Of a stretch of DNA of 40,565 nt, positions 5,936 to 40,565 are shown piece after piece (within the stretch, counting starts at the first letter, position 1; every line of letters begins with the position of its first letter). The notes beneath the pieces were generated by a model. It did not search any database, was not told the DNA's origin, and saw only the letters and a list, made by a program, of their open reading frames with translations. This DNA comes from Bacteroidota bacterium (GTDB lineage Bacteria > Bacteroidota > Bacteroidia > Bacteroidales > JAADGE01), in NCBI GenBank assembly GCA_034659855.1, contig JAYEIA010000053.1, positions 1 to 40,565 on the forward strand, written 5' to 3'. The position numbers were made by a program, and so were the translations under genes.

Positions 5936-6757
5936 ATGGTTTGTTTTCCTCACGCAAAGATTAATCTTGGGTTGTATATTACGGAGAAACGAAAAGATGG
6001 ATTTCATAATATTGAAACGGTCTTTTATCCTATTCCTGTTTATGATGTATTGGAAATAAATCGGTCAGATTCTGTTTCAGGAATTGAATTGACCGCCTAT
6101 GGGCTGAAAATTGACGGCAGACCGGAGGATAACTTGGTGGTTAAGGCCTATAATCTGTTGAGCCGCGATTTTGATTTGGGAGGAGTTGAGGTCGCTTTGT
6201 TTAAGCATATTCCCTTTGGTGCAGGTTTGGGTGGCGGTTCTTCTGATGCTGCTTTTATGCTGAAATTACTAAATCAGGAATTTGACCTACAACTTAGTGA
6301 TACGGATTTGGAGCATTATGCCGCCCAATTGGGCAGTGATTGTGCATTTTTTATAAAAAGCCGGCCGGTATATGCTACCGGACGAGGCAATCTGTTTTCT
6401 GCCGTAGATTTGGATTTGTCTGCCTATTTTTTAATATTGGTTCTCCCTACCGGAAAAGTCTCCACGCCCGATGCTTATGCCGGGGTAAGCCCTTCTCCGA
6501 GTAAGGATTCTTTGCCCGATTTATTGAGTAAAGATATTAACCTGTGGAGTAAATCTGTGAAAAACGATTTCGAAGAATCAATTGTTAAAACAATTCCCGA
6601 AATCAGGACTATAAAACGTAAGATGTATGCCCACGGAGCGATGTATGCTTCAATGTCCGGCAGTGGTTCGTCGGTTTACGGAATTTTTAAGGAAAAGCCG
6701 GAGCCGGCTTTATTTGAAAATTACCGGTTTTATAAAGTTACCGGATTGGGAGTTTGA
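5936..6757 (+). CDS. ispE: 4-diphosphocytidyl-2-C-methyl-D-erythritol kinase (MEP pathway)
   Basis: It belongs to the GHMP kinase family. It has the N-terminal motif PHAKINLGLYI and the ATP-binding loop PFGAGLGGGSSDAA. The track ORF starts at 5849, but the ATG at 5936 (MVCFPHAKINLGL) is the canonical start. Confidence 0.85.
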   Translation: MVCFPHAKINLGLYITEKRKDGFHNIETVFYPIPVYDVLEINRSDSVSGIELTAYGLKIDGRPEDNLVVKAYNLLSRDFDLGGVEVALFKHIPFGAGLGGGSSDAAFMLKLLNQEFDLQLSDTDLEHYAAQLGSDCAFFIKSRPVYATGRGNLFSAVDLDLSAYFLILVLPTGKVSTPDAYAGVSPSPSKDSLPDLLSKDINLWSKSVKNDFEESIVKTIPEIRTIKRKMYAHGAMYASMSGSGSSVYGIFKEKPEPALFENYRFYKVTGLGV

Positions 6758-7075
6758 ATGGGAGGTTTATTTATTCTGACTTTATATCTATGAGTCCACT
6801 CCGAAAACACCGTTTTTGGAAAATCTTGTAAATACAAAAACAGTATTGTGCTAATAATAAGAACTTTATGATTTAACAAAAACATGTAAATCTTGTCAAT
6901 CCTGTCAAAAAAGACTTTTCGGAGTACACTCATCTATTGGATCTTTCGCTTTTTTGTATATTATAATTCCAAATCGGGGAAGTTTGTCTTGTTGAATATT
7001 ACGGCCTCGAAATCTAACCAATCTTAAATTTTAGTCTCTTCAGTAATTTATACTGCGTACTATTTTATTCTGAGT

Positions 7076-7909
7076 TTAGTCTTCAAAAAACAAAATAGAA
7101 GCATACCCTACGACACTGTCCGATTTTTTCACTTCCCCCGAATGACCGTAGCGTAATAATTTGGCTTTACTTTTAAAATTGACATAGTTTGAATACTCAA
7201 TGAGAGCCGTTGCCGGACCGTAGCCACACATACTGATATCATACTTTTTGACTGTTTCAATCAGTCCTCGGCTGTCTTTTTTCAGTATGGCATCTATGGC
7301 TCTTTGGTCATTCCTTTGAGCTTTCTGTGGAGTAACGTGGTGAGAGAAATCAGTGGAAGCAATAAACATTATTTTCTTGTTTTGTGCTTCAGCCGATTTA
7401 TAGATATTACGAGCAATTGCTTTTCCGTTCAGATAATTTTGATTACCCATGGAAACCGGTAAAATTTTAAAATCAAAGTCGGTAAAATACGTCATCATCG
7501 GAAGAATGACTTCTGCAGCGTGTTCAAATTGGTGTGCTTCTTGAGATCGCGGGAGCCCTGTTGCTTCTGCAAAATCCGAATCCACTTCGATATCCCCGAA
7601 AGGCGTTTCCCACTTATCGGCAAGATCCAAACCAATTTCTTTTCCGCGTCCGGTATGATTTGGATTTATTATAACCAGTGTATCAAATTTTTGCTGAGAC
7701 AATCGCAGAATCTCAAAAAAGTGAACCGACTGATAGGCAGAATATGTATAGCCGGCATGAGGTAATACAGCACCGAGTATTGATTTTTCCGATAAATCGG
7801 TATTAATCGTTTTGAGTTCTGATTCTGTAATTTTTTTGAGGAGTTTTTTTATTTCTTCCGGATCTGACGGATAAAATGATCCGGCAACGACTGGTTTTCT
7901 TTTTATCAT
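7076..7909 (-). CDS. AmmeMemoRadiSam system protein B (MEMO1 family)
   Basis: 277 aa. The N-terminus RKPVVAGSFYPSDPEE and the histidine-containing motifs (LPHAGYTYS, DFSHH) are characteristic of Memo-like proteins. It is the last gene of the AMMECR1 - radical SAM - Memo triad. Confidence 0.8.
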   Translation of the reverse strand: MIKRKPVVAGSFYPSDPEEIKKLLKKITESELKTINTDLSEKSILGAVLPHAGYTYSAYQSVHFFEILRLSQQKFDTLVIINPNHTGRGKEIGLDLADKWETPFGDIEVDSDFAEATGLPRSQEAHQFEHAAEVILPMMTYFTDFDFKILPVSMGNQNYLNGKAIARNIYKSAEAQNKKIMFIASTDFSHHVTPQKAQRNDQRAIDAILKKDSRGLIETVKKYDISMCGYGPATALIEYSNYVNFKSKAKLLRYGHSGEVKKSDSVVGYASILFFED

Positions 7910-12906: not shown

Positions 12907-13695
12907 TCAACGATCAAGAAGCTGCGCCTTAATTATCGAATTCCAAATCTCATATCCTTTTTCATTCATGTGTACACGGTCTTTTAAGAAAATATCATTT
13001 TTCAACTTTCCGTTTTTCTCAAACATGGGCGTGCTGACGTTTATATAAGTGAGCCTGTTGTTATTTCTGCATTTATCTTTAATGAGGCGGTTTCCTTTTT
13101 GCATTTTGTCAAAATACCGCATTCTTGCCGGTGAGGGCTTTATGGATATAAAATAAATTCGAGAGTCGGGCAATACATCAGCACAAATTTCAAGAAACAA
13201 ATCAAACACCTCTGCAAATTGCTCAGGGCTGTTTCCCGCAGTACTCAAATCATTGTCGCCTTCATAAACCAGAATGTTCTTGGGTTTATATTTATAGACA
13301 ATGCGCGGAAAATAAAACACAAGTTCTTCCATGGTAGAACCTCCAAACCCTCTGTTAATTACGGTAATAGGCTTCATGCTGTCTTTCAAATTGCTCCATT
13401 TTCGAATGGATGAGCTTCCCACAAATAAGGCAGCGTATAGAGGAAAACCGTTTAGAGAATCTTCTTCTTCAAACTTCAAAATCTCTCGCTCAAACCGTTT
13501 TAAGTGGCTTGTATCAGCTAATTTTGAGAGTTTTTCTAAGTATGGTTCAAAAACAAGTGAGTCTTTTCGTATTTTATTAATTGGGCGCTCAGTGTATTGC
13601 GATTTGGTCTGTTCACTTTGAACCTGTGAGCAAGAATAAAAGGAGAGAGAAACAAAACCAAGAATTATTACAGAGAATTGAAAAATGAGTTTCAT
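12907..13695 (-). CDS. SGNH/GDSL-family hydrolase (lipase/acylesterase-like) lipoprotein
   Basis: 262 aa. It has a signal peptide with a lipobox-like FYSC. The motif VINRGFGGST and the YEGDNDL / DRVHMN blocks are typical of SGNH hydrolases. Confidence 0.7.
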   Translation of the reverse strand: MKLIFQFSVIILGFVSLSFYSCSQVQSEQTKSQYTERPINKIRKDSLVFEPYLEKLSKLADTSHLKRFEREILKFEEEDSLNGFPLYAALFVGSSSIRKWSNLKDSMKPITVINRGFGGSTMEELVFYFPRIVYKYKPKNILVYEGDNDLSTAGNSPEQFAEVFDLFLEICADVLPDSRIYFISIKPSPARMRYFDKMQKGNRLIKDKCRNNNRLTYINVSTPMFEKNGKLKNDIFLKDRVHMNEKGYEIWNSIIKAQLLDR

Positions 13696-13838
13696 TGCAA
13701 ATCATATTTTGTTATAAAATAAAATGGGCTGAAAATAGTATAGTTGCCCACTATATAAGCCGGCAACCGCACTTACCTTTTGATAATCTTTTTAAATCAA
13801 TTACATTTGTATTAGGAAAACAAATATATATAAAATTC

Positions 13839-15239
13839 ATGACACTTATAAAATCAGTATCCGGAATAAGAGGAACTATCGGAGGAAATCCGGGAACAAA
13901 TTTAACACCCCCTGACTTAGTAAAATTTATCAGTTCATTTGTAGAATTACTGAAACAAAAGTATCAAAAAGATCGCCTGAAAATTATACTCGGAAGAGAT
14001 TCTCGAATTTCAGGGCCTATGGTGGCAAGTATTGTTTCCGGTACATTGTCGGCTTGCGGAGCAGACATCATTGATATCGGACAAGCCACCACACCGACTA
14101 CAGAAGTTGCGGTAGTAAAACTTCAAGCAGACGGGGGTATTATTCTGACGGCAAGTCATAACCCCAAACAGTGGAATGCCTTAAAGTTACTCAATAATGA
14201 AGGCGAATTTCTTTCGGCTCAAGACGGAGACCGCTTACTGGAACTAACTTCCGAAGCAAATACTGAAAGACAATATGCCGATGTGGAAAATATCGGTGCA
14301 ATGACCAAAAATGAGACAATTCTTAAAACTCACATAAAAGGTATTCTGGCTCATACATTGGTCAAACCGGAATTAATAAGAGAGAAAAACTATAAAATTG
14401 TAGTTGACGGTATAAATTCCGTCGGTGCTTTTGCAGTCCCTCAAATATTAAAGAGTCTGGGTGTAAACGACGATAATATTATTTTATTGAATGGAGAACC
14501 CAATGGGGAGTTTGCCCATAATCCCGAGCCGATTCCACAGAATTTGACCGGAATTGTGAATGCCGTCAAAGAGCATAAAGCAGATCTTGGTATCGTGGTT
14601 GACCCGGATGTTGATCGTTTAGCTTTTGTAACTGAACAAGGTGAATTGTTTGGCGAGGAATATACTTTGGTGGCGGTTGCCGATTATATTTTATCCCATA
14701 CTAAAGGGAATACCGTGTCCAACTTATCTTCGAGCAGAGCTTTACGTGATATAACTGAAAAGCATGGCGGACAATATTCTGCTTCTGCTGTAGGAGAAGT
14801 TAATGTTGTGGCAGAAATGAAACGCACAAATGCTGTAATCGGAGGCGAAGGCAACGGTGGGGTTATATATCCGGAGATGCACTACGGCAGAGATGCTTTA
14901 GCAGGGATTGCTTTGTTTTTAAGTCATATGGCAATAAGTAATAAATCTTGCAGCCGGCTTCGAGCACAATATCCGAATTATGAAATTATAAAGTCAAAAA
15001 TATCTCTTGATGAAGGCATAGACGTGGATGAAATTTTGAACAAGATAAAAGCTCATTTTAGTCACAATCCGGAGGTGAAAATTAATACCGTTGATGGAGT
15101 AAAAATAGATTTTTCCGATTCGTGGGTGCATCTGCGTAAGTCAAATACCGAACCAATTATTCGTATTTATGCGGAAGCAAAAACTGCACAGCAGGCCAAT
15201 GATTTGGCTTCAAAGGTAAATCAATTGGCAATTGGATAA
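13839..15239 (+). CDS. glmM: Phosphohexomutase (phosphoglucosamine mutase / phosphomannomutase family)
   Basis: It has the active-site loop TASHNP and the Mg-binding DPDVDR motif, within the four-domain phosphohexomutase architecture. The track ORF begins at 13695, but the ATG at 13839 (MTLIKSVSGIRG) gives the canonical N-terminus. The glmM assignment versus a manB-type mutase is uncertain. Confidence 0.75.
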   Translation: MTLIKSVSGIRGTIGGNPGTNLTPPDLVKFISSFVELLKQKYQKDRLKIILGRDSRISGPMVASIVSGTLSACGADIIDIGQATTPTTEVAVVKLQADGGIILTASHNPKQWNALKLLNNEGEFLSAQDGDRLLELTSEANTERQYADVENIGAMTKNETILKTHIKGILAHTLVKPELIREKNYKIVVDGINSVGAFAVPQILKSLGVNDDNIILLNGEPNGEFAHNPEPIPQNLTGIVNAVKEHKADLGIVVDPDVDRLAFVTEQGELFGEEYTLVAVADYILSHTKGNTVSNLSSSRALRDITEKHGGQYSASAVGEVNVVAEMKRTNAVIGGEGNGGVIYPEMHYGRDALAGIALFLSHMAISNKSCSRLRAQYPNYEIIKSKISLDEGIDVDEILNKIKAHFSHNPEVKINTVDGVKIDFSDSWVHLRKSNTEPIIRIYAEAKTAQQANDLASKVNQLAIG

Positions 15240-15245
15240 GATATT

Positions 15246-16091
15246 GTGAAAAAGAACAAAGAATATATTAAAAGTCACAAATTTTTAAAGGCTGTTGTAA
15301 CAGATCTTGACGGTACACTGTTAAACAAAAACCATACTGTGGCTCCGAAGGATATAGAGGCACTTCAGGAAATTGGAGAACAAGGAATTTGCCGAATTAT
15401 TGCTACGGGGCGATCTTTATACAGTTACTCCCAAGTTTTACCGTCTGATTTTCCGACTGATTATTTGATTTCATCTGCCGGCGGAGGGATTACTGAACTA
15501 AAAACCGGGAAACTCATACGGGTTGCTAAGATCGATTCTGTAAAAGTCCGAGAGATTGCCCGTAAACTGGATGCCTATAAAATTGATTTTCAGGTAAGGG
15601 AAGCAATTCCTCGAGGACATTGTTATGCTTATAAGCGATATTTTGATCACAATCCGGATTTTGATCGCTTGAATGCCAATTACCGGGAGTTTTCTTACCC
15701 TATTGAGTCAATAGATAAGCTGGGCGATGCATCAAGAATCATTAGTATAGCTCCCAACTTAGATTATATTGAATACTTTAACAGTTTTTCGGAATATAGT
15801 ATAATTAGGGCAACCTCACCAATTGACGGACAGTCGGTTTGGATGGAGATATATCCATCGGGAGTAAATAAAGGAAATGCACTCAAATGGCTGCTTGACA
15901 GGCTTCAACTGCCTCTAAAGGATACTATAGGTTTAGGCAACGATTATAATGACATTCATTTCTTGGATATTACCAAAGAAAGTTTCGTGGTAAACGAAGC
16001 CCCTGAATCTCTTAAAAAAGTATATCGAACGACCGTTAGTCACAATAAAGCTCCATTGCATCAATGTTTGAAAACCTGCGGTATTATTTAA
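15246..16091 (+). CDS. HAD-IIB (Cof-like) sugar-phosphate phosphatase
   Basis: 281 aa. The DLDGTLL motif I is near the N-terminus and a GNDYND motif lies near the C-terminus. It has an apparent GTG start 7 nt after the mutase stop, so it is probably co-transcribed. Confidence 0.7.
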   Translation: MKKNKEYIKSHKFLKAVVTDLDGTLLNKNHTVAPKDIEALQEIGEQGICRIIATGRSLYSYSQVLPSDFPTDYLISSAGGGITELKTGKLIRVAKIDSVKVREIARKLDAYKIDFQVREAIPRGHCYAYKRYFDHNPDFDRLNANYREFSYPIESIDKLGDASRIISIAPNLDYIEYFNSFSEYSIIRATSPIDGQSVWMEIYPSGVNKGNALKWLLDRLQLPLKDTIGLGNDYNDIHFLDITKESFVVNEAPESLKKVYRTTVSHNKAPLHQCLKTCGII

Positions 16092-16588
16092 TGCCTGACT
16101 CTAAATTGTGCTTTTAAATCTTCGGTCCAATCACAATATGGATTTTGCGACAATTGAAGGTTGTAGAAATGGTTGATACCTGTAATTTCTTTTCCAAGCC
16201 AGTGTGGTTTTTTAAAGTGTTCATTTTCTTTTGTCAGTTCAATTTCTGCCAAAACTAAACCATGATTTTCCTTTTCAAAAACATCCACTTCAAACTTCAA
16301 ATGACCGGCCGGAACAATATATCTTGTTTTTATGACAAGAGCTCCGACAGATAATTCCAGAAGCTTTTCAGCATCAGAATATTTTATTTCGGTTTCGAAC
16401 TCCTCTCTGCTTATTCCATTATTTTCGGATATTCCCTTTATTGTGATAAATCCCTTACTCTCTGTCTGACGTACCCTCACAGTTCTGTGCGGGTCGGTGT
16501 TGAGATAGCCTTGCGTAATTCGATATTGATTTACTGCAAAAGATTTGAACGCATTATTTACTAAAAATTTTCTTTCAATTTCTTTCAT
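16088..16588 (-). CDS. CYTH-domain protein (CyaB / thiamine-triphosphatase-like)
   Basis: 166 aa. The N-terminal EIERKFLV (ExExK) signature and size are typical of the CYTH family. It overlaps the 3' end of the upstream M48 peptidase gene by 14 bp, which points to an operon. Confidence 0.75.
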   Translation of the reverse strand: MKEIERKFLVNNAFKSFAVNQYRITQGYLNTDPHRTVRVRQTESKGFITIKGISENNGISREEFETEIKYSDAEKLLELSVGALVIKTRYIVPAGHLKFEVDVFEKENHGLVLAEIELTKENEHFKKPHWLGKEITGINHFYNLQLSQNPYCDWTEDLKAQFRVRH

Positions 16589-20070: not shown

Positions 20071-20206
20071 AGGAAGATCATTAACTCTTCAAAAATCGGA
20101 AATATTAAAATAAAGAACAAATAATCTCAGAGCCTTTATGGAATCTTTATCAAAAAGTTATCTAATCATTGAATTCAGAAATATTTTAACTTTAATACTA
20201 TTAGTT

Positions 20207-21334
20207 ATGAAAACAAATGCAATTTTCGGAATATTATTGGCTTTGGCTTTACTTATAAACCTCAGCACATATGCTCAAAAATCAGATGACAATGGATCTA
20301 AAATCCAAGTAGCCTTACTTTTGGATACCAGTAACAGTATGGACGGTTTGATAGATCAAGCTAAAACAGAACTGTGGAGTGTGGTCAATGAATTGGCAAC
20401 GACAACTTATAAAGGAAATCGCCCGGAACTGGAGATTGCTCTGTATGAATACGGGAACGACAATTTGGAAAGTGCCGACGGATACGTTCGTTTGGTAAGT
20501 CCACTGACTACAGACTTGGATGCAATTTCTGAGCAATTATTTTCACTTAAAACCAACGGAGGCTATGAATATTGCGGAACAGTCATTAGAGATGCCTCTG
20601 ATGAGCTCAAATGGAGTAAATCGGACAAAGACCTGAAAATGATTTTTATAGCCGGGAATGAAGAGTTTACTCAAGGCGCAGTAGATTATAAAACTTCTTG
20701 CAAAAATTCAATTGCCGAAGGGATAATTATTAATACTATATTTTGCGGCAATGCTACCGAGGGAATTAATACCATGTGGAAAGACGGAGCCGACTTGGCC
20801 GACGGAAAGTATATGAATATTAATCAAAATCAGCAAGTAAGCTATATTGAAACACCTTTTGATGATCAAATTTTAGGATTGAACACAAAATTAAATAAGA
20901 CTTATATTGGATACGGAAGTCAGGGCGAAGCTTTTGGTTCCAGACAATCAGTTCAAGATATAAATGCCGTAAAAATGAGTAAAAAGGCCTCTGTGGGGCG
21001 GGCAGTTTCTAAAAGCTCTTCAGCCTATCGTAACTCCAATTGGGATTTGGTTGATGCTGTAGAAGATGAATCCGTTGATATTGAAGAAATTAAAGAAGAA
21101 CAGTTGCCTGAAGAAATGAAGGGTATGGATAAAAAAGAAAGGAAAGCATATGTTGAAGGAAAAAAGGAGGAGAGAGAAAAAATTCAGAAACAAATTAATG
21201 CGCTTAATAAAAAGCGAGAAGCGTTTATAGCAAAGGAAAAGAAAAATAATGCTGAGGAGGGTACTCTGGGGTCAGCGTTAATAAAAGTGGTGAGAGAACA
21301 AGCTCAGGATAAAAATTATATTTTTGAAAAATAA
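20207..21334 (+). CDS. Secreted von Willebrand factor A (vWA) domain protein with a C-terminal charged coiled coil
   Basis: A signal peptide (MKTNAIFGILLALALLINLSTYAQ) is followed by a MIDAS motif (ALLLDTSNSMDG) and a Lys/Glu-rich C-terminus. The track ORF starts at 20138, but the ATG at 20207 gives the signal peptide. Confidence 0.7.
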   Translation: MKTNAIFGILLALALLINLSTYAQKSDDNGSKIQVALLLDTSNSMDGLIDQAKTELWSVVNELATTTYKGNRPELEIALYEYGNDNLESADGYVRLVSPLTTDLDAISEQLFSLKTNGGYEYCGTVIRDASDELKWSKSDKDLKMIFIAGNEEFTQGAVDYKTSCKNSIAEGIIINTIFCGNATEGINTMWKDGADLADGKYMNINQNQQVSYIETPFDDQILGLNTKLNKTYIGYGSQGEAFGSRQSVQDINAVKMSKKASVGRAVSKSSSAYRNSNWDLVDAVEDESVDIEEIKEEQLPEEMKGMDKKERKAYVEGKKEEREKIQKQINALNKKREAFIAKEKKNNAEEGTLGSALIKVVREQAQDKNYIFEK

Positions 21335-21645
21335 GGGCAGTAACTTAAATTCAGTACTATACAGCAGTAGCAAAGCGTGTGAGGGGGGAGGAATTAATAA
21401 CACGCTTCCCCTCAACATACAAAGAAAACCTCACTTTTAATAAACCAAATATGAGTTCAGTATAAAAAGTATAAAGTATTAATGTAAAACGTGTTATTTG
21501 CCTAATATTCAAACAGCTGTTAAAATATAGTAATTCTATATAATTTGTTGAATATCAAATAATTAACTTTACAAACTTTCAACTTTTAACCTTTTTAAAC
21601 TACACTCAAATATAAACAGCCGCTTTTCGGCAAAAAGTCAAAACC

Positions 21646-23883
21646 ATGAAAACTTTAAAAACACTATTCGTATTTGCCCTATTGTTTGGAGTTCTATTGC
21701 CCGGGTTTTCAGGAGGATTTATTATTGTGGCACCTCCGGGGTCTAATGGAATAAATTCAAACGCTTCATCGTATATGTTGGAAGTTAAAAATTTGAAAGT
21801 AGAAACTCAAATTGATGAGTTAATTGCCTTTACATCAATTGATCAAACATTTTATAACCCCGGTTCGCAACGGCTCGAAGGCTGGTTTTTATTTCCGGTT
21901 CCGGAAGATGCTGTTTTGAGTAATTTCAGTATGGAGATAAACGGAAAACAAACGCCGGCTGAACTACTGGATGCAGATAAAGCGAAGAAAATTTATGAAG
22001 ATATTGTCCGAAAAATGAAAGATCCGGCTTTATTGGAATATGCAAACCGCGGGTTATTCCGAGTGAGAATATTCCCTATAGAGCCGCATTCGGAGAAACG
22101 TATCAAAATTTTTTATCGTGAAATTTTGAAGAAAGACAACAACACCGTGTCATGGACTTTCCCTTTGAATACTGAAAAACATTCGGCGAAACCGCTCAAA
22201 AATTTAAGTTTTAAAATTGATATTAAATCAGCTCAAAATATTAATTCCATTTATTCGCCACACCATGTGGCAGAGGTCATTCGACAAAGTCCGAACAAAG
22301 CGGTTGTCGGGTATGAGGCCAAAGCCGTAAAGCCCGACAAAGATTTCAGGCTGTTCGTCAGCTACTCCGGAGAAGATGTCGGCATGGCAGTTATGTCTTA
22401 TCAAGAAGCCACGCCTTCTGAAGAAGACGGATTTTTTTTAATGAATATCAGCCCGGCATTTATTGATGATAAAGCAAAATTGAGTAGTAAAGATATAACT
22501 TTTGTACTCGATGTGTCGGGAAGTATGCGAGGAGATAAGATGCAGCAAGCTAAGGATGCTTTGGATTGGTGTGTGGATAATTTAAATAAGGGCGATCGCT
22601 TTGAGATTGTAAAATTCTCAACTGTAGCGTCCTCATTGTTTGGTAAACTGGAAACTGCCAATTCTTCAAACATAGCAGAAGCTAAGAAATTCATAAGCAA
22701 ACTCGCGGCCGTAGGAGGAACAAATATGGATGAAGCCTTTGAGATTGCTTCAAAAATAAAATCCGAGAACAATCGCCCGCATATGATTGTATTCATTACT
22801 GACGGAAAGCCAACAATTGGAGTGACAGATACAAAAAAGCTACTCAACAAAATTCCCGGCAACTCCAATTCGCAAACCAGAGTGTTTACTTTTGGTGTAG
22901 GCGACGATATAAACACCCACTTATTGGATAAAATAACAAATAAGACCGGAGCCTACAGAGCTTATATAGGTGAAGGAGAAGATATTACCAAACATATTGC
23001 TTCATTTTATGAAAAGGTCAGTTCCCCGGTTTTGACTGATATTGATATAAAAAGTTCAGCTATACGATTGACAGAAATTTTTCCGCGTAATTATCCTGAC
23101 TTGTTTAAAGGGGGATCGCTTACTATATTGGGAAGGTATCCCAAATCGGGAAAAACACAAATAACGCTGACGGGAAAGGTAAACGGAAAGACGAAAACGT
23201 ACAAATACAATATTGTCTTTTCCGGAAAACAACACAATGATTTTGTTCCGGTATTATGGGCCGGTCGCAAAATAGGTTTTCTTCTTGATAAGATAAGGTT
23301 AAGCGGCGAGGAAAAAGAACTTACAGATGAAGTAAAGTCTTTGGCTTTAAAGTACGGAATAATAACTCCTTATACGGGTTATCTGATTTTGGAAGATGAA
23401 GAAATTCAAATATCGCAGGGAAATATTCGTGAGGATGATATTATTTTCAGAAACCGGTTTGGAGCCAAAAGAAGTGCGGTAGAATTTATGCTAAAGAATA
23501 AAAAAGAATATGATGACATGGAGGAAGAAAGCGGCTTTGCAGGTATTCAGAAAAGCTCCGAAATACAGTCTCAAACCAATGCAGTTACGACTAAAGATGT
23601 ATACCGGGGAGCATCAAGAATGAAATACAGAGACAAGCACGGAGTGGTCAGGAACTTTGCCCATCAGTCGGTCAACGTGCAGGGTAGGGCTGTTTACAAT
23701 AATGGAGATAAATGGATAGATCAATATTCGGTACAATCTGATTTGAAACAAAAAGATATATTATTTGCGAGCAGTTCATATTTTAATCTGCTGAGTCAAG
23801 AACCTGAGGTAGCTGAGTTCCTGGCACTCGGGAAAAACATACGTTTTGTTTATAAACAGACACTATATAATATAACAGATTAG
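21646..23883 (+). CDS. Secreted VIT-domain + vWA-domain protein (inter-alpha-trypsin-inhibitor heavy-chain-like)
   Basis: 745 aa. A signal peptide is followed by an N-terminal VIT-like region (YMLEVKNLKVETQI...GWFLFPVPEDAVLSNFSMEINGK). Then comes a vWA domain with a MIDAS motif (ITFVLDVSGSMRGDKM...TDG). Confidence 0.75.
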   Translation: MKTLKTLFVFALLFGVLLPGFSGGFIIVAPPGSNGINSNASSYMLEVKNLKVETQIDELIAFTSIDQTFYNPGSQRLEGWFLFPVPEDAVLSNFSMEINGKQTPAELLDADKAKKIYEDIVRKMKDPALLEYANRGLFRVRIFPIEPHSEKRIKIFYREILKKDNNTVSWTFPLNTEKHSAKPLKNLSFKIDIKSAQNINSIYSPHHVAEVIRQSPNKAVVGYEAKAVKPDKDFRLFVSYSGEDVGMAVMSYQEATPSEEDGFFLMNISPAFIDDKAKLSSKDITFVLDVSGSMRGDKMQQAKDALDWCVDNLNKGDRFEIVKFSTVASSLFGKLETANSSNIAEAKKFISKLAAVGGTNMDEAFEIASKIKSENNRPHMIVFITDGKPTIGVTDTKKLLNKIPGNSNSQTRVFTFGVGDDINTHLLDKITNKTGAYRAYIGEGEDITKHIASFYEKVSSPVLTDIDIKSSAIRLTEIFPRNYPDLFKGGSLTILGRYPKSGKTQITLTGKVNGKTKTYKYNIVFSGKQHNDFVPVLWAGRKIGFLLDKIRLSGEEKELTDEVKSLALKYGIITPYTGYLILEDEEIQISQGNIREDDIIFRNRFGAKRSAVEFMLKNKKEYDDMEEESGFAGIQKSSEIQSQTNAVTTKDVYRGASRMKYRDKHGVVRNFAHQSVNVQGRAVYNNGDKWIDQYSVQSDLKQKDILFASSSYFNLLSQEPEVAEFLALGKNIRFVYKQTLYNITD

Positions 23884-31165: not shown

Positions 31166-32725
31166 ATGGAAATTATATGGATTGTATCAATAATTTTGGG
31201 CTTAATCGGCGGTATTCTCATCGGTTTTTTTGTCAGAATTAAACAAGTTAACAAGAAAGCAGAAGAAATAATTACAGAAGCCAAAGTTTCAGCAGAAGTT
31301 GAAAGAAAGGAGAAGGAACTTTTGGCCAAGCAGAAATTCATGGAACTCAAAGAAAAGCATGAAAGCTTTATAAAGAGGAAAAATGAAAAATTGGCTAAAA
31401 ATCAAAACAAAGTCAAACAAAGAGAAGCTTCATTAAAGCAACGAAAAGACGAATTTAATATAAAATTGTCAAATTATGATCAGCAAAAAGCTGCCACTGA
31501 AAAATTAAACAGTAATTTAGAAGCCAAGCTTCAAATTGTTGAAAATAAAGAAAATGACTTGGAGAAAATCAGAAACGAACATATCCAAAAATTAGAAAAT
31601 ATTGCCGGCTATACAGCACAAGAGGCCAAAGAAGAACTTACTGTTTCGCTAAAAGCAGAAGCAAAAACCGAAGCATTAAGTTACCGGAATGATATCATTG
31701 AAGACGCAAAAGTAAATGCCAAAAAAGAAGCCAAGCAAATTATCATAAAAACCATTCAAAGGATAGGTACCGAAACTGCGGTTGATAATGCCGTTACAGT
31801 TTTTCATATTGAGAGCGACGATTTAAAAGGACGAATCATCGGAAGAGAAGGACGGAATATCAGAGCCATGGAAGCGGCTACAGGAATAGAAATTATAGTT
31901 GATGATACACCGGAAACTATTCTATTATCCGGATTTGACCCTATCAGACGTGAAATTGCCCGACTTGCTTTGCATAAGTTAGTGACCGACGGAAGAATTC
32001 ACCCGGCACGTATCGAGGAGGTTGTCTCAAAAACCAAAGAACAAGTGGAAGAGGAAATTTTAGAAACCGGAAAGAAAACCTCAATAGATTTGGGTATTCA
32101 CGGATTAAGTAATGAGTTAATGAGAATGGTGGGTAAAATGAAGTATCGCTCATCATACGGACAAAACTTGTTGCAGCATTCAAGAGAAACGGCAAATCTA
32201 TGTGCAGTTATGGCCGGAGAGTTAGGACTGGATGCTCAAATGGCAAAACGAGCCGGATTATTGCATGATATCGGGAAAGTACCCAATGAGGAAATTGAAA
32301 TTCCACATGCCATATACGGAATGAAATTAGCCGAAAAATATAAAGAAAATCCGGAAGTATGTAATGCTATCGGAGCTCACCATGACGAGGTGGAAATGAC
32401 AACCTTGTTGGCACCCATCGTGCAGGTTTGTGATGCTATTTCCGGGGCAAGACCGGGAGCGAGAAGAGAAATTGCGGAGTCTTACATAAAAAGAATCAAA
32501 CAATTGGAGGATTTGGCACTTTCTGCCGACGGAGTAGTTAAAACCTATGCCATTCAGGCCGGTAGAGAATTACGAGTTATTGTGGGCAGCGATAAAGTAA
32601 CAGATAAGGATATTGAGAATATTTCAATGGATGTGGCCAGGCGTATTGAAGAAGAAATGACTTACCCGGGGCAAATTAAAATAACGGTAATCAGAGAAAG
32701 ACGTTCGGTGAGCTATGCGAAATAG
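31166..32725 (+). CDS. rny: Ribonuclease Y
   Basis: 519 aa. An N-terminal TM helix and long coiled coil are followed by a KH domain ([13 protein letters not shown]) and an HD domain (LLHDIGK...HHD). Confidence 0.88.
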
Positions 32726-35359: not shown

Positions 35360-36130
35360 CTATTCAGGTTTAGAACATAAATATATCAATTCATTTTGAT
35401 CCAGGCGATAGCGTGTTCGTTTAGTTTCGGGCAGTTGGTTGTATAAATCAATGGCATCAACCTCAAAACCGGCTTTTTTTAATCTATTCGGATAATCTTT
35501 TCCGTATACTCGAACATGATCATACTGACCAAAAAGTCGTTCTCGTTCTTTGGGGGCGGTTATTGCAGGGTCTTCGTAGGTCGTTTCCCTCTCGTAGTCA
35601 ATAGGAACCTGCAAAATAGCTTTACCTCCCGGTTTAAGCACGCGCCAAAGCTCTTTCATCGCCGTTTGCTCTTCATCGATATGCTCCAACACATGATTAC
35701 ACATAATAAAATCGAAACGGTTATCTTCGAATACCAAATTTCTGATATCTGTTTTTACATCTGCAATAGGAGAGACCAAATCGGCGGTTGTGTAATCTAA
35801 ATTCTCAAGGTTTCTGAAACGTTTTAAGAAAGGTTGTTCCGGAGCCATATGAAGCACCTGCATCGGTCGAGAAAAAAAATCAGTTTTATTTTTCAGGAAA
35901 AGCCATAATAACCGGTGACGTTCCAGTGATAAACAAGAGGGACACATTCTGTTTTCTTTTCCTTGATTTCCGTAGGGTAAAAATTTGCGAAACGATTTCC
36001 GGCACACCGGACAATCATAGTTATCTCCTGAGTATATCCAACTCGCCGGAACTCGTATTAAGTAACTCAATTTTATGAGAAGCGGCCGGGGTACTTTTCG
36101 AACCAGAAATTTTGCAATTGCTTTAATCAT
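35360..36130 (-). CDS. Zinc-ribbon + class I SAM-dependent methyltransferase (type 11)
   Basis: 256 aa. The N-terminal CPVC...CPSC four-Cys ribbon is followed by the methyltransferase motifs FDFIMCNHVLEHI and LKPGGKAIL. Confidence 0.7.
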   Translation of the reverse strand: MIKAIAKFLVRKVPRPLLIKLSYLIRVPASWIYSGDNYDCPVCRKSFRKFLPYGNQGKENRMCPSCLSLERHRLLWLFLKNKTDFFSRPMQVLHMAPEQPFLKRFRNLENLDYTTADLVSPIADVKTDIRNLVFEDNRFDFIMCNHVLEHIDEEQTAMKELWRVLKPGGKAILQVPIDYERETTYEDPAITAPKERERLFGQYDHVRVYGKDYPNRLKKAGFEVDAIDLYNQLPETKRTRYRLDQNELIYLCSKPE

Positions 36131-36227: not shown

Positions 36228-36401
36228 GCTAAGGAGTGTCTGAACGGAAATACCCAAAATTAGAAATGTTTTTTTTTGCGATATTTTTATTTTTTTTAAT
36301 TCGCTGATACAGTGGCATCACCAAATTTAAAAAAATAAAAATCTCATCAAAAAAAACTCATTTCGTAAAATTCGTCTATTTCCGTTCAGACACTAAGGAA
36401 C
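36228..36401. repeat. Perfect 15-bp inverted repeat (gtgtctgaacggaaa / tttccgttcagacac) flanking a 128-bp AT-rich segment, each copy adjoined by a taagga direct motif
   Basis: The left copy is at 36236-36250 and is preceded by ctaagga. The right copy is at 36379-36393 and is followed by taaggaac. The segment lies in the promoter region of the minus-strand methyltransferase gene. Confidence 0.6.
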
Positions 36402-36503: not shown

Positions 36504-37043
36504 TTACTCCGTTTGTCCTGCTTTTATAAATTTATTTTCTGTATAATTAGTTGCTCTGTCAATTATTTTTAGTGTTTTTTTATCAGATGATAATTCAATT
36601 TTAATCCAGCCATAATTATAGTTTGTAAATCCGGACGGATAAAATCCAGACCTGTAGCCGATATATTTTTCTCCTTTCCCTGCAAATTCGTCTAAACAAA
36701 TACCGTTAACATTTTTCCAATTCCCATTTTCAGATATTACTTTATTTACATCAAAAAGCAATACATTTCCATTGTCAGAATCTGCTCTAATGTTATCAAA
36801 TCCATCACAATCAATCATTTTATCATTTAATTTTACTATTGCGGTGTTTTCAGATGAATTTATTTTTTCAATTTCAAATATTAGGTCTTTACAGGTTCCG
36901 CATATAGAATCAGGATTTGAGAACGTAATTATTTTATCTAATTCTACAAACATTATACGGTCAGCAGGCAAATCTTCAGTTTTATTGCAAGAAAAAAACA
37001 ATCCGGTAATCACAATTCCTATCAGAAGATTTAAATTCTTCAT
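36504..37043 (-). CDS. Hypothetical lipoprotein
   Basis: 179 aa. It has a signal peptide with lipobox FFSC and no recognisable catalytic motif. Confidence 0.45.
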   Translation of the reverse strand: MKNLNLLIGIVITGLFFSCNKTEDLPADRIMFVELDKIITFSNPDSICGTCKDLIFEIEKINSSENTAIVKLNDKMIDCDGFDNIRADSDNGNVLLFDVNKVISENGNWKNVNGICLDEFAGKGEKYIGYRSGFYPSGFTNYNYGWIKIELSSDKKTLKIIDRATNYTENKFIKAGQTE

Positions 37044-37115
37044 GTCAAATATTTTAAGTGTTTGGATATATTATTTTTAATTGATTCAATATAACCGCAC
37101 AATTTTTATTTTCGA

Positions 37116-37616
37116 CTAAAATGTATAACCGACAGACAGTCCGCCCATGATGGTTGGAACATTAACAATTACGGAAGGATTGATACTTGCTCTAATTAAA
37201 AATCCGGACTGTTTATGTTGGTATCTATATCCAAATCTTAAGACATAAATACTTCCTGCAATTCCAAATTTATTATCTTTTATTGCGATTGGCATTCCAT
37301 ATCCTGTTTCAAATTGATGATTTTTTTCACCAAATATGAAATTCACCTGTAGTGGTATAAATAATTGATAATCATTAATATAACTTGTTCCGCCGACGTG
37401 AATATACTTAGATAATGAAATTCCTACTCCCGGTGCAAAAATAATTTTCTTATTAATTGAAAAATTTCTTTCATAGTTTATGGAAAATGGTCCAAATCCT
37501 GTACCACCAAGTTCATAATAGATTGCATTCCTATCAATTTTGTTTTCTTGTCCAAAAATATTAATAGAATTAGTCACAATTAACAAAATAAAAATATATT
37601 GTTTAAAATCAGGCAT
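37116..37616 (-). CDS. Hypothetical small outer-membrane beta-barrel-like protein
   Basis: 166 aa. It has a signal peptide and alternating hydrophobic/aromatic beta-strand patterning. The C-terminal ...VGYTF with terminal Phe is typical of OMP beta-barrels. Confidence 0.45.
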   Translation of the reverse strand: MPDFKQYIFILLIVTNSINIFGQENKIDRNAIYYELGGTGFGPFSINYERNFSINKKIIFAPGVGISLSKYIHVGGTSYINDYQLFIPLQVNFIFGEKNHQFETGYGMPIAIKDNKFGIAGSIYVLRFGYRYQHKQSGFLIRASINPSVIVNVPTIMGGLSVGYTF

Positions 37617-37805
37617 ATATTTTAATAGTTTTTTCTATTGCTGAGCCAATTCCGAAAAGTCATTTAGTTTAAAGAACTCTAAAATTTCGACTTTTCGGAG
37701 TAGGTTCATTGTTTACATTTTCATAATGTCATTATCGCATGAGTTTTGTCTTTAATGCATGCTAACTCTGATACTTTACGCTTTTTTGACCTTCTGTAAA
37801 ATAAA

Positions 37806-38156
37806 TTACTTTAAGTATAATTTTACTATGGCAGAGTTTTGATTCGCTTTTATATTGGGATATACATAATAAGTTCCCGGGGTAAACGACAGTGCTTTTA
37901 CATTGGGGTCATTTTCTGTCCAGAATTTTTTGAATGTGCCCCCGTCTTTAAGAATCCAGAACCCGGCATTGTTACCCTCAACTTTATATGCCGAAACGGT
38001 TTGAGTAATTTTTACAGCCGTACATTTTAAGGAGGCGTTTTGGCCGGCATGTCCTTTGGCTTGGGTTCCGGAAATTGAATAATTCTGGGCACTGAGTCCA
38101 AAACTAAGCGTCGTAAATACTATTATTAAAGTACTTGAAAGTAGAAAATTTTTCAT
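37806..38156 (-). CDS. Hypothetical small secreted protein
   Basis: 116 aa with a signal peptide and no recognised domain. Confidence 0.4.
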   Translation of the reverse strand: MKNFLLSSTLIIVFTTLSFGLSAQNYSISGTQAKGHAGQNASLKCTAVKITQTVSAYKVEGNNAGFWILKDGGTFKKFWTENDPNVKALSFTPGTYYVYPNIKANQNSAIVKLYLK

Positions 38157-38574
38157 ATATCTGCTATAAAATTAATAATTTAAGTAAATATAAGAAAACT
38201 TGTATTAGTTGGATAAATATTTTTACAAACAAACGATATTTATTGATGGATTGTGCCTATTCGGAAATGATACTTGAAGTCAAACTTTGCCAAAAAGGAT
38301 TGTTCCGAAATAACTTGACGCTTTAAACTCGTTCTTTTGCCTTTGGTTTTGCTCGCTCGCAAAAAAAATTAAAAATCCTTTAAACAGCTCGCTATTCGCA
38401 GTATTTTCAAGCAATAAAAGAACAAAATAACTTTGTTTAAAACTGTCAATTTATTTCATCACAATTCCTAAATTAAAGACTACCGGTCAATTTTTTCAAT
38501 AATACTTATAAACAGTTGGCTGATAGTTATAAAAATATTAAATTTGTATGAATTCATATATTAAAATAAATCTT

Positions 38575-38991
38575 ATGAAAAACTTATCGTCCGTTGTTAT
38601 TGCATTAGTTGTGTCCATAGTAATTCTTGGTTCTTGCACAAAAAACCCTGAAGATAAAATTCAAGGTACTTGGACTATTGACAAAATTGAAAGTACTGCA
38701 GATATGACACCTGCAGATATGGAGTTATTTGAAAGTTCTGCCGAAGAACAAAAAGAAATTTTGACCTATAAATTTGATGAGTCCAAAATGACCATGAAAT
38801 ACGGCGATGAGATTTCTGAATGGGCTTGGAATATCGACAAAGTAAATGATAGTCTTAAGCTTAATATCAGTATAGAGGACAGAAATTTGGAATTTAATGT
38901 AAAAGAACTTACCGAGAATAAATTAATTTGGGAAGAAAATGTTTACGACGAATATATTGTAACAACTACACTGGTGAAGAAACCGGAATAA
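38575..38991 (+). CDS. Lipocalin-like domain lipoprotein
   Basis: A signal peptide with lipobox LGSC is followed by a GTWTIDKIES start characteristic of bacterial lipocalin-like domains. The track ORF begins at 38548; the ATG at 38575 gives the signal peptide. Confidence 0.5.
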   Translation: MKNLSSVVIALVVSIVILGSCTKNPEDKIQGTWTIDKIESTADMTPADMELFESSAEEQKEILTYKFDESKMTMKYGDEISEWAWNIDKVNDSLKLNISIEDRNLEFNVKELTENKLIWEENVYDEYIVTTTLVKKPE

Positions 38992-39343
38992 TATGGGCTT
39001 AGAAAACACCCTTATCGTCATTTTTACGATTTTGTGACCGGACCAAACAGACCATAAGAATAGGTCTGAAAGTTTTACTTTTCGGCCGGTTGCCGGTTAT
39101 GGATTGTTTGTAGTTTGATTGTTTATTAACCTCAATTATTCATAAACTTTCAATAGAAAGCAGTATAAAATATTGATTGAATTGACATTGTAACTATTAA
39201 TTAAAAAAATAAAATAGCTCAAATTTGGCTATCATCATTTTTTGCAGAAAAACAATCAATAGGTTAATATACAAATGCTTTCATTGAGGTTATTATTAAT
39301 TCCCGAATTATTCGGGTTAAAAGTAATTTAAAGATTTTTACCA

Positions 39344-40351
39344 ATGAAAAGTATATTTATAGCCTATCCGTCTCAGGATAAAAGTTTGGCAAAAAAATTA
39401 TCCTCTAAGTTGGAAGGCAAAGGGTATTCTTGTAAAATACTACCCAGAGACCATACTGACAGTGCCGGTAATGATGTTGAGCTTGAAGATATTATTGCCG
39501 ATTGCAGTATATTTCTTATGCTGTATTCTGATTTTGCTCAACAATCCGATAAATTGGCCGAACAACTTCATTGGGCCTATGATTACGGCTTAAAAATTAT
39601 TCCTTTTAAAACAGCAAAGCTTACAAATTCTCTCAGTTCCGGATTTTTATTGCATAAATATGAATGGCTGGATGCCTTCGGAGATGGGTTTGATTCGGCC
39701 TATGAAGTTCTGCTTGAGATTATACAGGAAGTTAATGACGGAAAATCTCCCGAGCGCATGATAAAACAAAAAATAAGCAAAAAAGAGTCTGTAGCTCCTC
39801 CAAATCAAAAGAAATATATTCTAATTGGGATTTTTATTTTAGCGGTGGCCTTGATAGTTTATGCGATATCAGAAAACTTTAGCAATAACAAAACGAATAC
39901 AGAATCTTCAACAAATACCGGTCAATTTACAGACCCTGCCGGAAACAGCCGAACAGATTTTACCGATAACGCTGATATTACAACCGTAAAAAAAGGTTCA
40001 AGATGGCTTGTGGGCGAGTGGGTGGTTTCTGATTATTTCGATGACCAAAAAGTTTCAGCGGGTGATAAGCAGATGATCAAAGATGCCATCGTAGGAAAAG
40101 GGAAATTAATTTTTAATGCCGATAAGCAGTTCTTTCGTATGGGCTTTGCACCACAAGTGCAACAAGCCGACTGGTCTTTTGATGCCATTAGAAGTACTAT
40201 TGTTTTGGAAGTTAACAATACTGTTCAGGAAATGAAATTGTCGCAGTATAACGATTCGGCTTTTGTGATGTTGACTACTGAACAAGTAACTGATTCGCTC
40301 GGAACGGTAAGCCCGGTTACTACCAAAATTGTATTTTCTAAGGTTAAATGA
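39344..40351 (+). CDS. TIR-domain (N-terminal, cytoplasmic) - single TM - C-terminal lipocalin-like domain protein
   Basis: 335 aa. The N-terminus MKSIFIAYPSQDKSLAKKL...GYSC..LPRD...CSIFLMLYS...LAEQLHWA...GLKIIPF matches the bacterial TIR_2 pattern (FISYS..D at the start, an alphaC Glu candidate, IIP strand). A TM helix (YILIGIFILAVALIVYAI) is followed by an S/T/N-rich linker. The C-terminal region (WLVGEWVV...) resembles the lipocalin-like domain of the upstream lipoprotein. Confidence 0.6.
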   Translation: MKSIFIAYPSQDKSLAKKLSSKLEGKGYSCKILPRDHTDSAGNDVELEDIIADCSIFLMLYSDFAQQSDKLAEQLHWAYDYGLKIIPFKTAKLTNSLSSGFLLHKYEWLDAFGDGFDSAYEVLLEIIQEVNDGKSPERMIKQKISKKESVAPPNQKKYILIGIFILAVALIVYAISENFSNNKTNTESSTNTGQFTDPAGNSRTDFTDNADITTVKKGSRWLVGEWVVSDYFDDQKVSAGDKQMIKDAIVGKGKLIFNADKQFFRMGFAPQVQQADWSFDAIRSTIVLEVNNTVQEMKLSQYNDSAFVMLTTEQVTDSLGTVSPVTTKIVFSKVK

Positions 40352-40565
40352 GTTCAGTTTAAAAAGTTATTAAGTTGAGAGTTTATAAAGTTAAAGTGCT
40401 AAAAATAAGAGTTTTAAGTTAGCAAAAAAATAATTCATAAAACTCTGATAATTAGGCATATAGCTTGTTTTGCTGAAATAAAACATACTTTTTAGACCAG
40501 ACTCTTAAATAAATACAAAAAAATAAGGACAAAGCATATTTTAAGTGCTTGTTACAAAATAAAGT

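Follow-up and report, generated by a model that had tools for sequence, protein, structure and literature searches.

The window analysed here is an entire contig of 40,565 bp. Two neighbouring genes close to one end of it are the subject of this analysis (Table 1). The first encodes a lipocalin-like lipoprotein and the second a bitopic membrane protein. Both open reading frames lie where the original prediction had placed them, with a gap of 352 bp between them and 214 bp from the second gene to the end of the window. The lipoprotein gene probably starts at the ATG at 38575 (Met10 of the listed frame), which would give a product of 138 aa; homologues align from Met10. The spacer between the genes is unusually long, as a tally of the gaps at other loci gives 6-155 bp with a median of about 17. 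It has no Rfam match and no terminator-like site on the + strand (a promoter and terminator scan found nothing above background), and its folding is at the background level (z-score -0.68). Because the genes are 352 bp apart, co-transcription of the pair in the window is uncertain.

Table 1. Features of the locus, with positions in the 40,565-bp window.
Feature	Position	Strand	Basis
Zn-ribbon and class I SAM methyltransferase, 256 aa	35360..36130	-	Methyltransf_11, E 9.8e-15
Lipocalin-like lipoprotein gene	38548..38991	+	listed ORF, 147 aa
Intergenic spacer, 352 bp	38992..39343		
Bitopic inner-membrane protein, 335 aa (TIR, TM helix, linker, lipocalin-like domain)	39344..40351, including stop codon	+	
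Cytoplasmic TIR domain, residues 4-123 (predicted topology)	39353..39712	+	Pfam TIR_2 match
Gln74 codon (CAA), at the catalytic-Glu position of TIR NADases	39563..39565	+	hhalign against SARM1 TIR
Single TM helix, about residues 158-178	39815..39877	+	hydropathy; helix 159-178 in AF2 model
Low-complexity S/T/N-rich linker, about residues 179-212 (predicted periplasmic)	39878..39979	+	sequence
Lipocalin-like (Lipocalin_4-type) domain, residues 213-335 (predicted periplasmic)	39980..40348	+	

The N-terminal part of the membrane protein had been read as a TIR domain, and this identification holds. Pfam TIR_2 (PF13676) matches residues 4-123 over profile positions 1-121 of 122 (E 8.5e-10; 39.6 bits, cut-off 28), and it matches 27/33 relatives with a best E value of 6.8e-24. 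The TIR strands can be picked out as IFIAY (betaA), IFLMLYS (betaC) and KIIPF (betaD), and an EW(V/L)D..DGF block is conserved. In an AF2 model of moderate confidence (pLDDT 55-89) the domain is flavodoxin-like, with the expected betaA-alphaE order of elements. Foldseek matched this model to the TIR domain of SARM1 (E 3.6e-5) and to SPARTA, MyD88, Hydra TRR-2 (target TM-score 0.76), RPS4 and BtpA. PDB sequence searches with the whole protein and with a three-sequence profile gave no significant match, and no meaningful NCBIfam family was matched.

Does this TIR have the active site of an enzyme? Enzymatic TIRs carry a catalytic Glu at the start of alphaC (SARM1 E642, AbTir E208, ThsB E85). The original prediction had pointed to a conserved acidic alphaC position in LAEQL, which is E73, encoded by the GAA just before the codon of Gln74. 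E73 proved to be Lys in both of the closest relatives, in a column that varies across the family and holds Glu in 16/47 sequences. It is Q74 that falls on E642 when the family is aligned by hhalign with the PDB-verified SARM1 TIR. E73 was rejected as the catalytic residue, being both unconserved and out of register. The register itself is a predicted one, drawn from aligned profiles (hhalign 87.9%) and the spacing of a motif. The S-x5-S-x5-[E/Q]-hydrophobic motif is spaced as in AbTir, with a distance from the betaC Ser to the [E/Q] position of 12 in both sequences.

The position is occupied by Gln in most of the family. In the near clade (n=45) the column holds 36 Gln (80%), five Glu, two Leu and two Ala. 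In 13 divergent sequences it is never acidic; in this divergent clade the catalytic site is occupied by hydrophobic residues and the TIR domain is degenerate, with the overall architecture retained. Exchange of the Glu for Gln is known to abolish TIR activity, ThsB E85Q and TLR4 E750Q both being inactive. Because Gln replaces the Glu needed for NAD cleavage, the window protein has the look of a sensor in the envelope rather than that of a classic NAD-destroying defence enzyme. The five relatives with Glu, one of which (P0010) has the same partner gene, mean that the ancestral form may have been an enzyme and that activity may persist in part of the family.

What if the Gln does not mark an inert site? 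Its conservation could reflect ligand binding or some other chemistry. In this hypothetical scenario the pocket would bind NAD+, or a signal made from NAD, and leave it intact, coupling cytoplasmic nucleotide status inside-out to the periplasm or outer membrane, or it would carry out a different, non-canonical reaction. Drift would be expected to scatter the column, and the column is not scattered. S62, S68, A78, P87, W108, D110, D114 and F116 are conserved in the near clade too, and a Glu next to the Gln is frequent. However, the verified sequences of SARM1 and AbTir have a Trp with a role in the TIR active site four residues before the catalytic Glu, and this residue is Lys70 in the window TIR. 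A literature search found no precedent for a Gln-type TIR with a binding-only or alternative activity, and the degenerate site of the divergent clade, in proteins of the same architecture, argues for a structural role. A working Gln pocket is judged unlikely.

The rest of the protein was expected to consist of one transmembrane helix, a linker rich in S/T/N and a C-terminal domain rich in beta structure, and hydropathy and the AF2 model bear this out. A single transmembrane segment is present in 48/48 relatives. Residues 169-212 have pLDDT values below 50 in the model, and the linker is poorly conserved in the alignment. The N-terminal side of the helix is Lys-rich. There are five Lys and Arg residues before it and one after it in the window protein, and the family means are 3.6 and 1.6. 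By the positive-inside rule, N-in/C-out is favoured in 37/48 relatives. This orientation, which is also the one first proposed, is further backed by free-standing copies of the C-terminal domain that lie behind signal peptides or lipoboxes. Sequence evidence thus supports an inner-membrane receptor with a cytoplasmic TIR, one transmembrane helix and a periplasmic lipocalin-like domain, in a predicted topology.

The C-terminal domain is predicted to fold into an antiparallel meander barrel of eight strands. Strand 1 carries the GxW motif and is followed by a single helix, and G224-x-W226 and W277 are invariant. It had been suggested that the Lipocalin_4 family would match here, and the picture is mixed. 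The window domain itself has no match to PF13648 at E values up to 1, whereas the C-domain is matched in 17/33 relatives (best E 5.7e-6), and it is on these relatives and on the fold that the assignment rests. The window lipoprotein scores 20.2 bits against Lipocalin_4, just below the cut-off of 22.4, and the partner of P0010 is annotated as PF13648. The lipoprotein has a signal peptide with the lipobox ...ILGS-C30, and Cys30, G40 and W42 are invariant among its homologues.

The two barrels are related to each other. The proposal that the C-terminal domain shares the GxW beta-rich pattern of the upstream lipoprotein is confirmed at the profile level (hhalign 97.4%, E 9.9e-12), with reciprocal HMM matches and GxW in both. 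As a side point, pairwise BLASTP of the C-terminal domain against the lipoprotein finds nothing (E 1.1); taken alone, this null result would have wrongly refuted the paralogy that the profiles recovered.

By fold, the nearest proteins are potempin E, a protease inhibitor, and lipocalin-like proteins of Bacteroides that are uncharacterised. The likeness to potempin E and to the Bacteroides Lipocalin_4 lipoproteins (PDB 4qrl, 3hty, 2m4l) extends to fold, family and GxW motif and, for the free form, to the lipoprotein signal. Those proteins are free-standing and mostly without an assigned function, whereas here one copy is fused through a transmembrane helix to a cytoplasmic TIR. Because lipocalin-like lipoproteins of Bacteroidota can be protease inhibitors, as potempin E is, small-molecule binding by the barrels is not guaranteed.

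These relationships also raise the possibility that there is no signalling at all. The lipocalin-like domains might be periplasmic lipid carriers, protease inhibitors or envelope tethers, with the TIR-like domain as a cytoplasmic module for oligomerisation or anchoring. The nature of the nearest folds would fit, as would the occurrence of the C-terminal domain in free or tandem secreted proteins that have no cytoplasmic part, and in the divergent clade the barrel is retained while the TIR decays. However, the TIR is well conserved in the near clade. Among the closest three sequences its identity to the window protein is 63% and 60%, and many near-clade positions are conserved at 85% or more, which points to selection for a specific role in the cytoplasm. 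In addition, so strict a pairing with a paralogous lipoprotein is reminiscent of sensor/co-sensor cassettes. A role for the pair outside signalling is, we think, improbable.

How widespread is the pair? Word-indexed homologue searches gave only 3-8 relatives, and the family was recovered by an exhaustive profile search. There are about 45 distinct close members, all from uncultured Bacteroidota or Chlorobiota assemblies. The lipoprotein almost always accompanies the TIR receptor. Among the 28 loci with enough upstream DNA to be assessed, 26 have a lipoprotein homologue as the next gene upstream in the same orientation, and two lack it. One sequence (P0004) seemed to be a variant with a TIR plus a T9SS tail, and was rejected. 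Its contig is probably chimeric, since it is 2 kb long, has low coverage and is 96% identical to L012 over 1,708 bp before it diverges.

The surroundings of the pair are also conserved. Across about 30 loci the neighbours are the lipoprotein, the methyltransferase, HDIG and DUF5684 genes and metabolic genes, with conserved synteny to the methyltransferase, FGE-sulfatase, Iso_dh and RNase Y, and the genomic position of the pair is stable across genera. In 17 loci a methyltransferase homologue is encoded upstream in the opposite orientation, directly adjacent in most; in the window three small genes (36504-38156) lie between it and the pair. This makes the methyltransferase a conserved divergent neighbour. 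A functional link with the pair is a candidate only. A functional link to an ECF-sigma/FecR/TonB-like operon, seen at L002 and L005, was rejected as the operon is not conserved at other loci. The concern that the end of the window might have cut off partner genes is not borne out by the contigs of relatives, which show only a convergent HDIG or DUF5684 gene downstream.

Could the pair nevertheless belong to a defence system? The original prediction leaned towards an NAD+-cleaving or signal-generating defence TIR. As an anti-phage or abortive-infection sensor, the pair would detect phage adsorption, injection or envelope damage through its barrels, and the TIR would deplete NAD+ or make a cADPR-type signal for a distant effector. 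Most bacterial TIRs characterised to date in the literature are indeed defence enzymes. Weak ThsB_TIR matches occur in four relatives and matches to CAP12/Pycsar TIR models in three, and the catalytic Glu is retained in the five relatives noted above. At L002 there is a Schlafen-AlbA_2/HATPase gene and a HepT/MNT toxin-antitoxin pair 2-5 kb downstream.

However, several observations do not fit. One is the Gln of the window protein and of most of its clade, given what the same exchange does to the ThsB and TLR4 TIRs. PADLOC matched neither the TIR protein nor the lipoprotein, and among ten neighbours its matches were to generic domains alone, HD ('Cas3') and SAM-methyltransferase ('mad2'). A ThsA-like, SIR2 or other effector had been thought worth looking for nearby, and none was found in the window or in those relatives whose contig extends beyond the gene. 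Thoeris requires a TIR gene beside a ThsA effector (SIR2/SLOG or Macro/TM), an arrangement seen at none of the roughly 30 loci. Among 2.9 million viral contigs scanned there are no relatives. The gene pair is in conserved housekeeping synteny, at a stable position, and not in a variable defence island. This protein shares the TIR fold and Pfam TIR_2 with the enzymatic bacterial TIRs (Thoeris ThsB, AbTir/BtpA, SPARTA TIR-APAZ and the CBASS/Pycsar TIR effectors). Compared with them, it has Gln for Glu, has a membrane anchor and a periplasmic domain, and has no partner effector, PADLOC match or defence island. An anti-phage function is considered very unlikely.

If not defence, what might the pair do? 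The closest precedents in layout are VtrA/VtrC and ToxR/ToxS of Vibrio, which sense bile acids with the help of a lipocalin-like partner. As in VtrA/VtrC, there is a bitopic protein with an N-terminal cytoplasmic output, one transmembrane helix and a periplasmic domain (in the predicted topology), and at the 26 loci mentioned above the neighbouring gene, in the same orientation, encodes a lipocalin-like partner for the periplasm. There are also differences. The output here is a TIR, whereas VtrA and ToxR have a winged-helix DNA-binding domain. Because the N-terminal domain is TIR_2 and has no wHTH match, the TIR protein is an analogue and not a member of the co-component systems. Unlike in those systems, the receptor bears a lipocalin-like barrel of its own, a paralogue of its partner. 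That partner is a lipoprotein whose gene lies upstream, whereas those of the VtrC/ToxS type are anchored by a transmembrane segment and encoded downstream or overlapping. Finally, these are Bacteroidota and Chlorobiota as opposed to enteric Gammaproteobacteria, and the likeness would appear to be one of layout. A lipoprotein acting on a sensor has another parallel in QseG-QseE. There, an outer-membrane lipoprotein serves as accessory to an inner-membrane sensor and works on the periplasmic portion of that sensor (PMC12691602). QseE is a histidine kinase, and QseG and the sensor domain are not known to be paralogues. The likeness to the TIR pair is functional only.

The reading we prefer, and to which we give about even weight, is that the pair is a co-component-type envelope receptor of the ToxR/ToxS or VtrA/VtrC kind, with a non-catalytic, assembly-type TIR as its output and a role in envelope physiology rather than phage defence. 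One or both barrels would bind a small hydrophobic molecule, perhaps a lipid, of envelope or environmental origin. The lipoprotein, as a paralogue of the periplasmic domain of the receptor, would be a co-sensor, and the two barrels would probably form a hetero-complex. Co-component systems of the VtrA/VtrC kind have an obligate periplasmic heterodimer; heterodimerisation of the present pair is an assumption of the model. Ligand binding might then change how the receptor oligomerises, and the signal would cross the single transmembrane helix to the TIR. The TIR would not cleave NAD+; it would act as an assembly or scaffold module that recruits or releases a putative cytoplasmic partner.

This arrangement invites comparison with Toll-like and IL-1 receptors, which likewise have an extracytoplasmic sensor, a single transmembrane helix and a cytoplasmic TIR. 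Most animal TLR and IL-1R TIRs also lack the catalytic Glu and act as scaffolds. The original prediction had spoken of an inverted Toll-like receptor layout, and structurally this is a fair description of a TLR-like topological logic. The chain order is reversed, with the TIR N-terminal in a type II protein as opposed to type I, and the ectodomain is a lipocalin-like barrel instead of LRR or Ig domains. In addition, no MyD88-like adaptor of the kind used by animal TLRs is known in these bacteria. The resemblance is a convergent layout and implies no orthology. More tentatively, and less probably than not, the pair might be seen as a bacterial core-genome counterpart of the Toll-like receptor principle, in which a periplasmic lipocalin pair would sense a hydrophobic molecule from the envelope or the environment and a catalytically dead, Gln-type TIR would undergo regulated assembly with a cytoplasmic partner.

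The architecture appears to be undescribed. It had not been recognised when the sequence was first read, and a literature search found no description of a TIR-TM-lipocalin protein. Bacterial TIRs are now viewed almost wholly as NAD+-processing anti-phage enzymes or secreted virulence factors. The TIR of this family is conserved, inherited vertically and anchored in the membrane; it is joined to an extracytoplasmic fold of ligand-binding type, has a dedicated lipoprotein partner and carries Gln in place of the catalytic Glu. If the proposed receptor is correct, bacteria would also deploy TIRs as receptor-coupled, non-enzymatic modules, a mode long ascribed to animal TLRs, and the ToxR/VtrA logic would reach a new output domain and a new phylum. 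On the more tentative Toll-like reading, signalling by a scaffold-type TIR would for the first time be placed in bacterial physiology, outside immunity, and the co-component transmembrane receptors would gain a new output class. Within the family, forms with Glu and forms with Gln occur naturally beside the same partner gene, so a direct comparison of catalytic and non-catalytic forms is possible.

The N-terminal domain of the window protein, here called the receptor, is soundly assigned as a TIR domain, as originally predicted. Residues 4-123 cover the whole Pfam TIR_2 profile at 39.6 bits (cut-off 28). An AlphaFold model built on three sequences, which deserves moderate confidence only (mean pLDDT 59.8; 55-89 in the TIR part), has the expected beta-alpha order, and its Foldseek matches in the PDB are TIR domains (SARM1, SPARTA TIR-APAZ, MyD88, Hydra TRR-2, RPS4, and BtpA). 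In NCBI it is called simply 'TIR domain-containing protein'. A single strongly hydrophobic segment follows at residues ~158-178, and one such segment is present in all 48 relatives examined. Lys plus Arg average 3.6 in the 15 residues before it versus 1.6 in those after it, with the excess on the N-terminal side in 37 of the 48. The receptor has no N-terminal signal peptide, and in relatives the C-terminal domain (C-domain) also occurs free-standing behind signal peptides and lipoboxes. Therefore, the N-in/C-out topology that had been predicted is well supported on sequence grounds.

The catalytic site is where the original prediction of an NAD+-cleaving or signal-generating TIR has to be revised. 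It placed the conserved acidic residue at the Glu of LAEQL (E73), a position that is Lys in both of the closest homologues and variable across the family. When the family profile (47 sequences) is aligned with SARM1 (87.9% probability; checked against the PDB, the SARM1 TIR reference agreed exactly and that of AbTir after two corrections), Q74 falls on the catalytic E642, E73 on K641 and L75 on I643. This register is backed by spacing. AbTir (S...E in YELD) and the window (S62 to Q74) share a spacing of 12 between the betaC Ser and the catalytic residue, and SARM1 and the window agree in a distance of 13 to the betaD Pro. It is backed too by the five relatives that do have Glu: theirs is in the Q74 column with a hydrophobic residue next, the arrangement of known TIR enzymes. 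Among 45 distinct close members of the family this column holds Gln in 36, Glu in 5, Leu in 2 and Ala in 2, and it is never acidic in 13 divergent sequences. Mutating the catalytic Glu abolishes SARM1 activity, and E-to-Q specifically abolishes both ThsB function and cADPR production by the TLR4 TIR. With Gln in this column, it is very improbable that the window protein is a canonical NADase. Conservation of the Gln suggests that the site is still selected for something else. A nucleotide-binding or otherwise non-canonical TIR is one rival reading, possible though less likely than the receptor proposed below.

The lipocalin-like nature of the C-domain and its kinship with the upstream lipoprotein, both claimed from the sequence, are correct, although detectable at profile and fold level only. 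The window C-domain has no Pfam match, nor is its similarity to the lipoprotein picked up by BLASTP (E 1.1). However, an exhaustive profile search returned 46 relatives, and among 33 full-architecture members TIR_2 is matched in 27 and Lipocalin_4 in 17. A C-domain model from a 38-sequence alignment is confident (pLDDT 94.2, pTM 0.84) and consists of eight strands and a single helix that follows strand 1. The lipoprotein and C-domain profiles align over 98 columns at 97.4% probability (E 9.9e-12), and HMM searches with each find the other reciprocally. Elsewhere, tandem C-domain pairs occur in secreted proteins of ~260 aa (P0013, P0023, P0031, P0040), and 16 stretches of a 3,644-aa protein (P0007) match the C-domain. 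P0006, 1,956 aa long with 19 short matches and odd repeats rich in Arg, Val and His, is apparently a spurious ORF.

The window is one entire contig (40,565 bp) of a Bacteroidota MAG. Both open reading frames lie where they had been predicted. The lipoprotein probably starts at 38575, since its homologues align from its Met10.

Features of the window and their positions
Feature	Position	Strand	Remarks
Two adjacent VWA-domain proteins	20138-23883		one VIT + VWA (745 aa)
RNase Y	31166-32725
Zn-ribbon SAM methyltransferase	35360-36130	minus	divergent neighbour of the pair
Nested palindrome	36235-36394		near-perfect, ~160 bp; outer arms 27 nt at 85%, inner arms 41 nt at 83%
Three small genes	36504-38156	minus	179, 166, 116 aa; signal-peptide or lipobox-like N-termini
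Lipoprotein gene	38548-38991		147 aa as listed; signal peptide and lipobox
Receptor gene	39344-40351		335 aa

Genome, metagenome and exact-match look-ups yielded ~35 loci, all from uncultured Bacteroidales, Draconibacterium, Acetofilamentum and 'Chlorobiota' assemblies; the family is known from MAGs only. A same-strand lipoprotein homologue lies directly upstream in 26 loci, at gaps of 6-155 bp (median ~17) apart from the window's 352 bp, the longest. Only two loci with sufficient upstream DNA lack it (L014, L035). At 17 loci the methyltransferase is the divergent neighbour of the pair. Three small genes intervene in the window, and at L002 and L005 an ECF-sigma/FecR/TonB-like operon displaces it. 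L002, on a 205-kb contig, also carries a Schlafen-AlbA_2/HATPase_c_4 gene and a HepT/MNT (nucleotidyltransferase) toxin-antitoxin pair downstream of the homologous genes (13290-16366); these defence-like genes are not seen at the other loci.

A defence sensor is another possible rival, though an unlikely one. PADLOC matches neither the receptor nor the lipoprotein, and only generic domains among the neighbours; no relative was found in the viral contigs scanned. Recurrent neighbours are housekeeping genes: FGE-sulfatase, isocitrate/isopropylmalate dehydrogenase, an HMG-CoA-lyase-like enzyme, M20 peptidase, an HDIG protein, DUF5684 and RNase Y. This combination is characteristic of a core function passed on vertically rather than of a mobile defence island. 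It had been suspected that partner genes were cut off at the contig end, 214 bp past the receptor gene. Relatives on longer contigs have a convergent HDIG or DUF5684 gene next, so no operon partner is hidden there.

A divergent clade (L022-L026; P0046, P0050, P0051) keeps the TM helix and the lipocalin-like C-domain, has an N-domain that no longer matches TIR_2, and is without the lipoprotein partner. This counts in favour of a further rival, possible though less likely than the receptor proposed below, in which the function is purely periplasmic and the TIR serves as an anchor. In this clade a 464-aa TPR protein begins 8 bp downstream, a UPF0227 esterase-like gene lies upstream, and the housekeeping neighbours include RNase Y, ZapA and LysRS. 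Only a few kb separate RNase Y from the family gene in this clade (RNase Y at L022, 5356-6918), as in the window, a hint that the neighbourhood is ancient. Two loci are aberrant. P0004 (L006), a 224-aa 'TIR plus T9SS-tail-like' protein (...NCYPNPF...) on a 2-kb contig at ~3x coverage, was rejected as a real architecture; its contig is 96% DNA-identical to L012 over 1,708 bp, then diverges within the gene, and is probably a chimeric assembly or strain rearrangement. At L019 (6001-7175; MAG labelled Draconibacterium orientale) the gene is split by a frameshift or sequencing error into overlapping ORFs (6001-6687 and 6678-7175).

What might the pair do? Its layout of cytoplasmic N-terminal output, one TM helix, periplasmic domain and adjacent lipocalin-like partner gene is that of VtrA/VtrC and ToxR/ToxS. 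In those co-component receptors bile acids are bound by the lipocalin-like partner, and a DNA-binding domain receives the signal. In the window a TIR that lacks the catalytic Glu forms the output. The receptor belongs neither to VtrA-type systems nor to TLRs, which it resembles in logic only, nor to Thoeris or the enzymatic TIRs. Given this layout and output, we propose that the pair is an envelope receptor with an assembly-type TIR output. Capture of a small molecule by one or both barrels, which may heterodimerise, would alter receptor oligomerisation, and the TIR would signal by assembly with a cytoplasmic partner; the neighbouring methyltransferase may also have a role. The parts are known families. 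No paper describing the combination was found, in line with the original prediction, and it appears undescribed as far as we could find. The pair suggests that bacteria use TIRs for receptor-coupled signalling of a non-enzymatic kind.

The three small genes have no Pfam, NCBIfam or PADLOC match and look like a local insertion, because in other loci the methyltransferase directly adjoins the lipoprotein gene at this position. The 166-aa product terminates in ...GYTF, resembling an outer-membrane beta-barrel terminus. The palindrome sits at the left edge of this apparent insertion and folds as RNA at -39.1 kcal/mol (z -7.4); miRNA-precursor Rfam matches on both its strands are spurious, caused by the palindrome itself. 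The VWA-domain proteins bear no relation to the pair.
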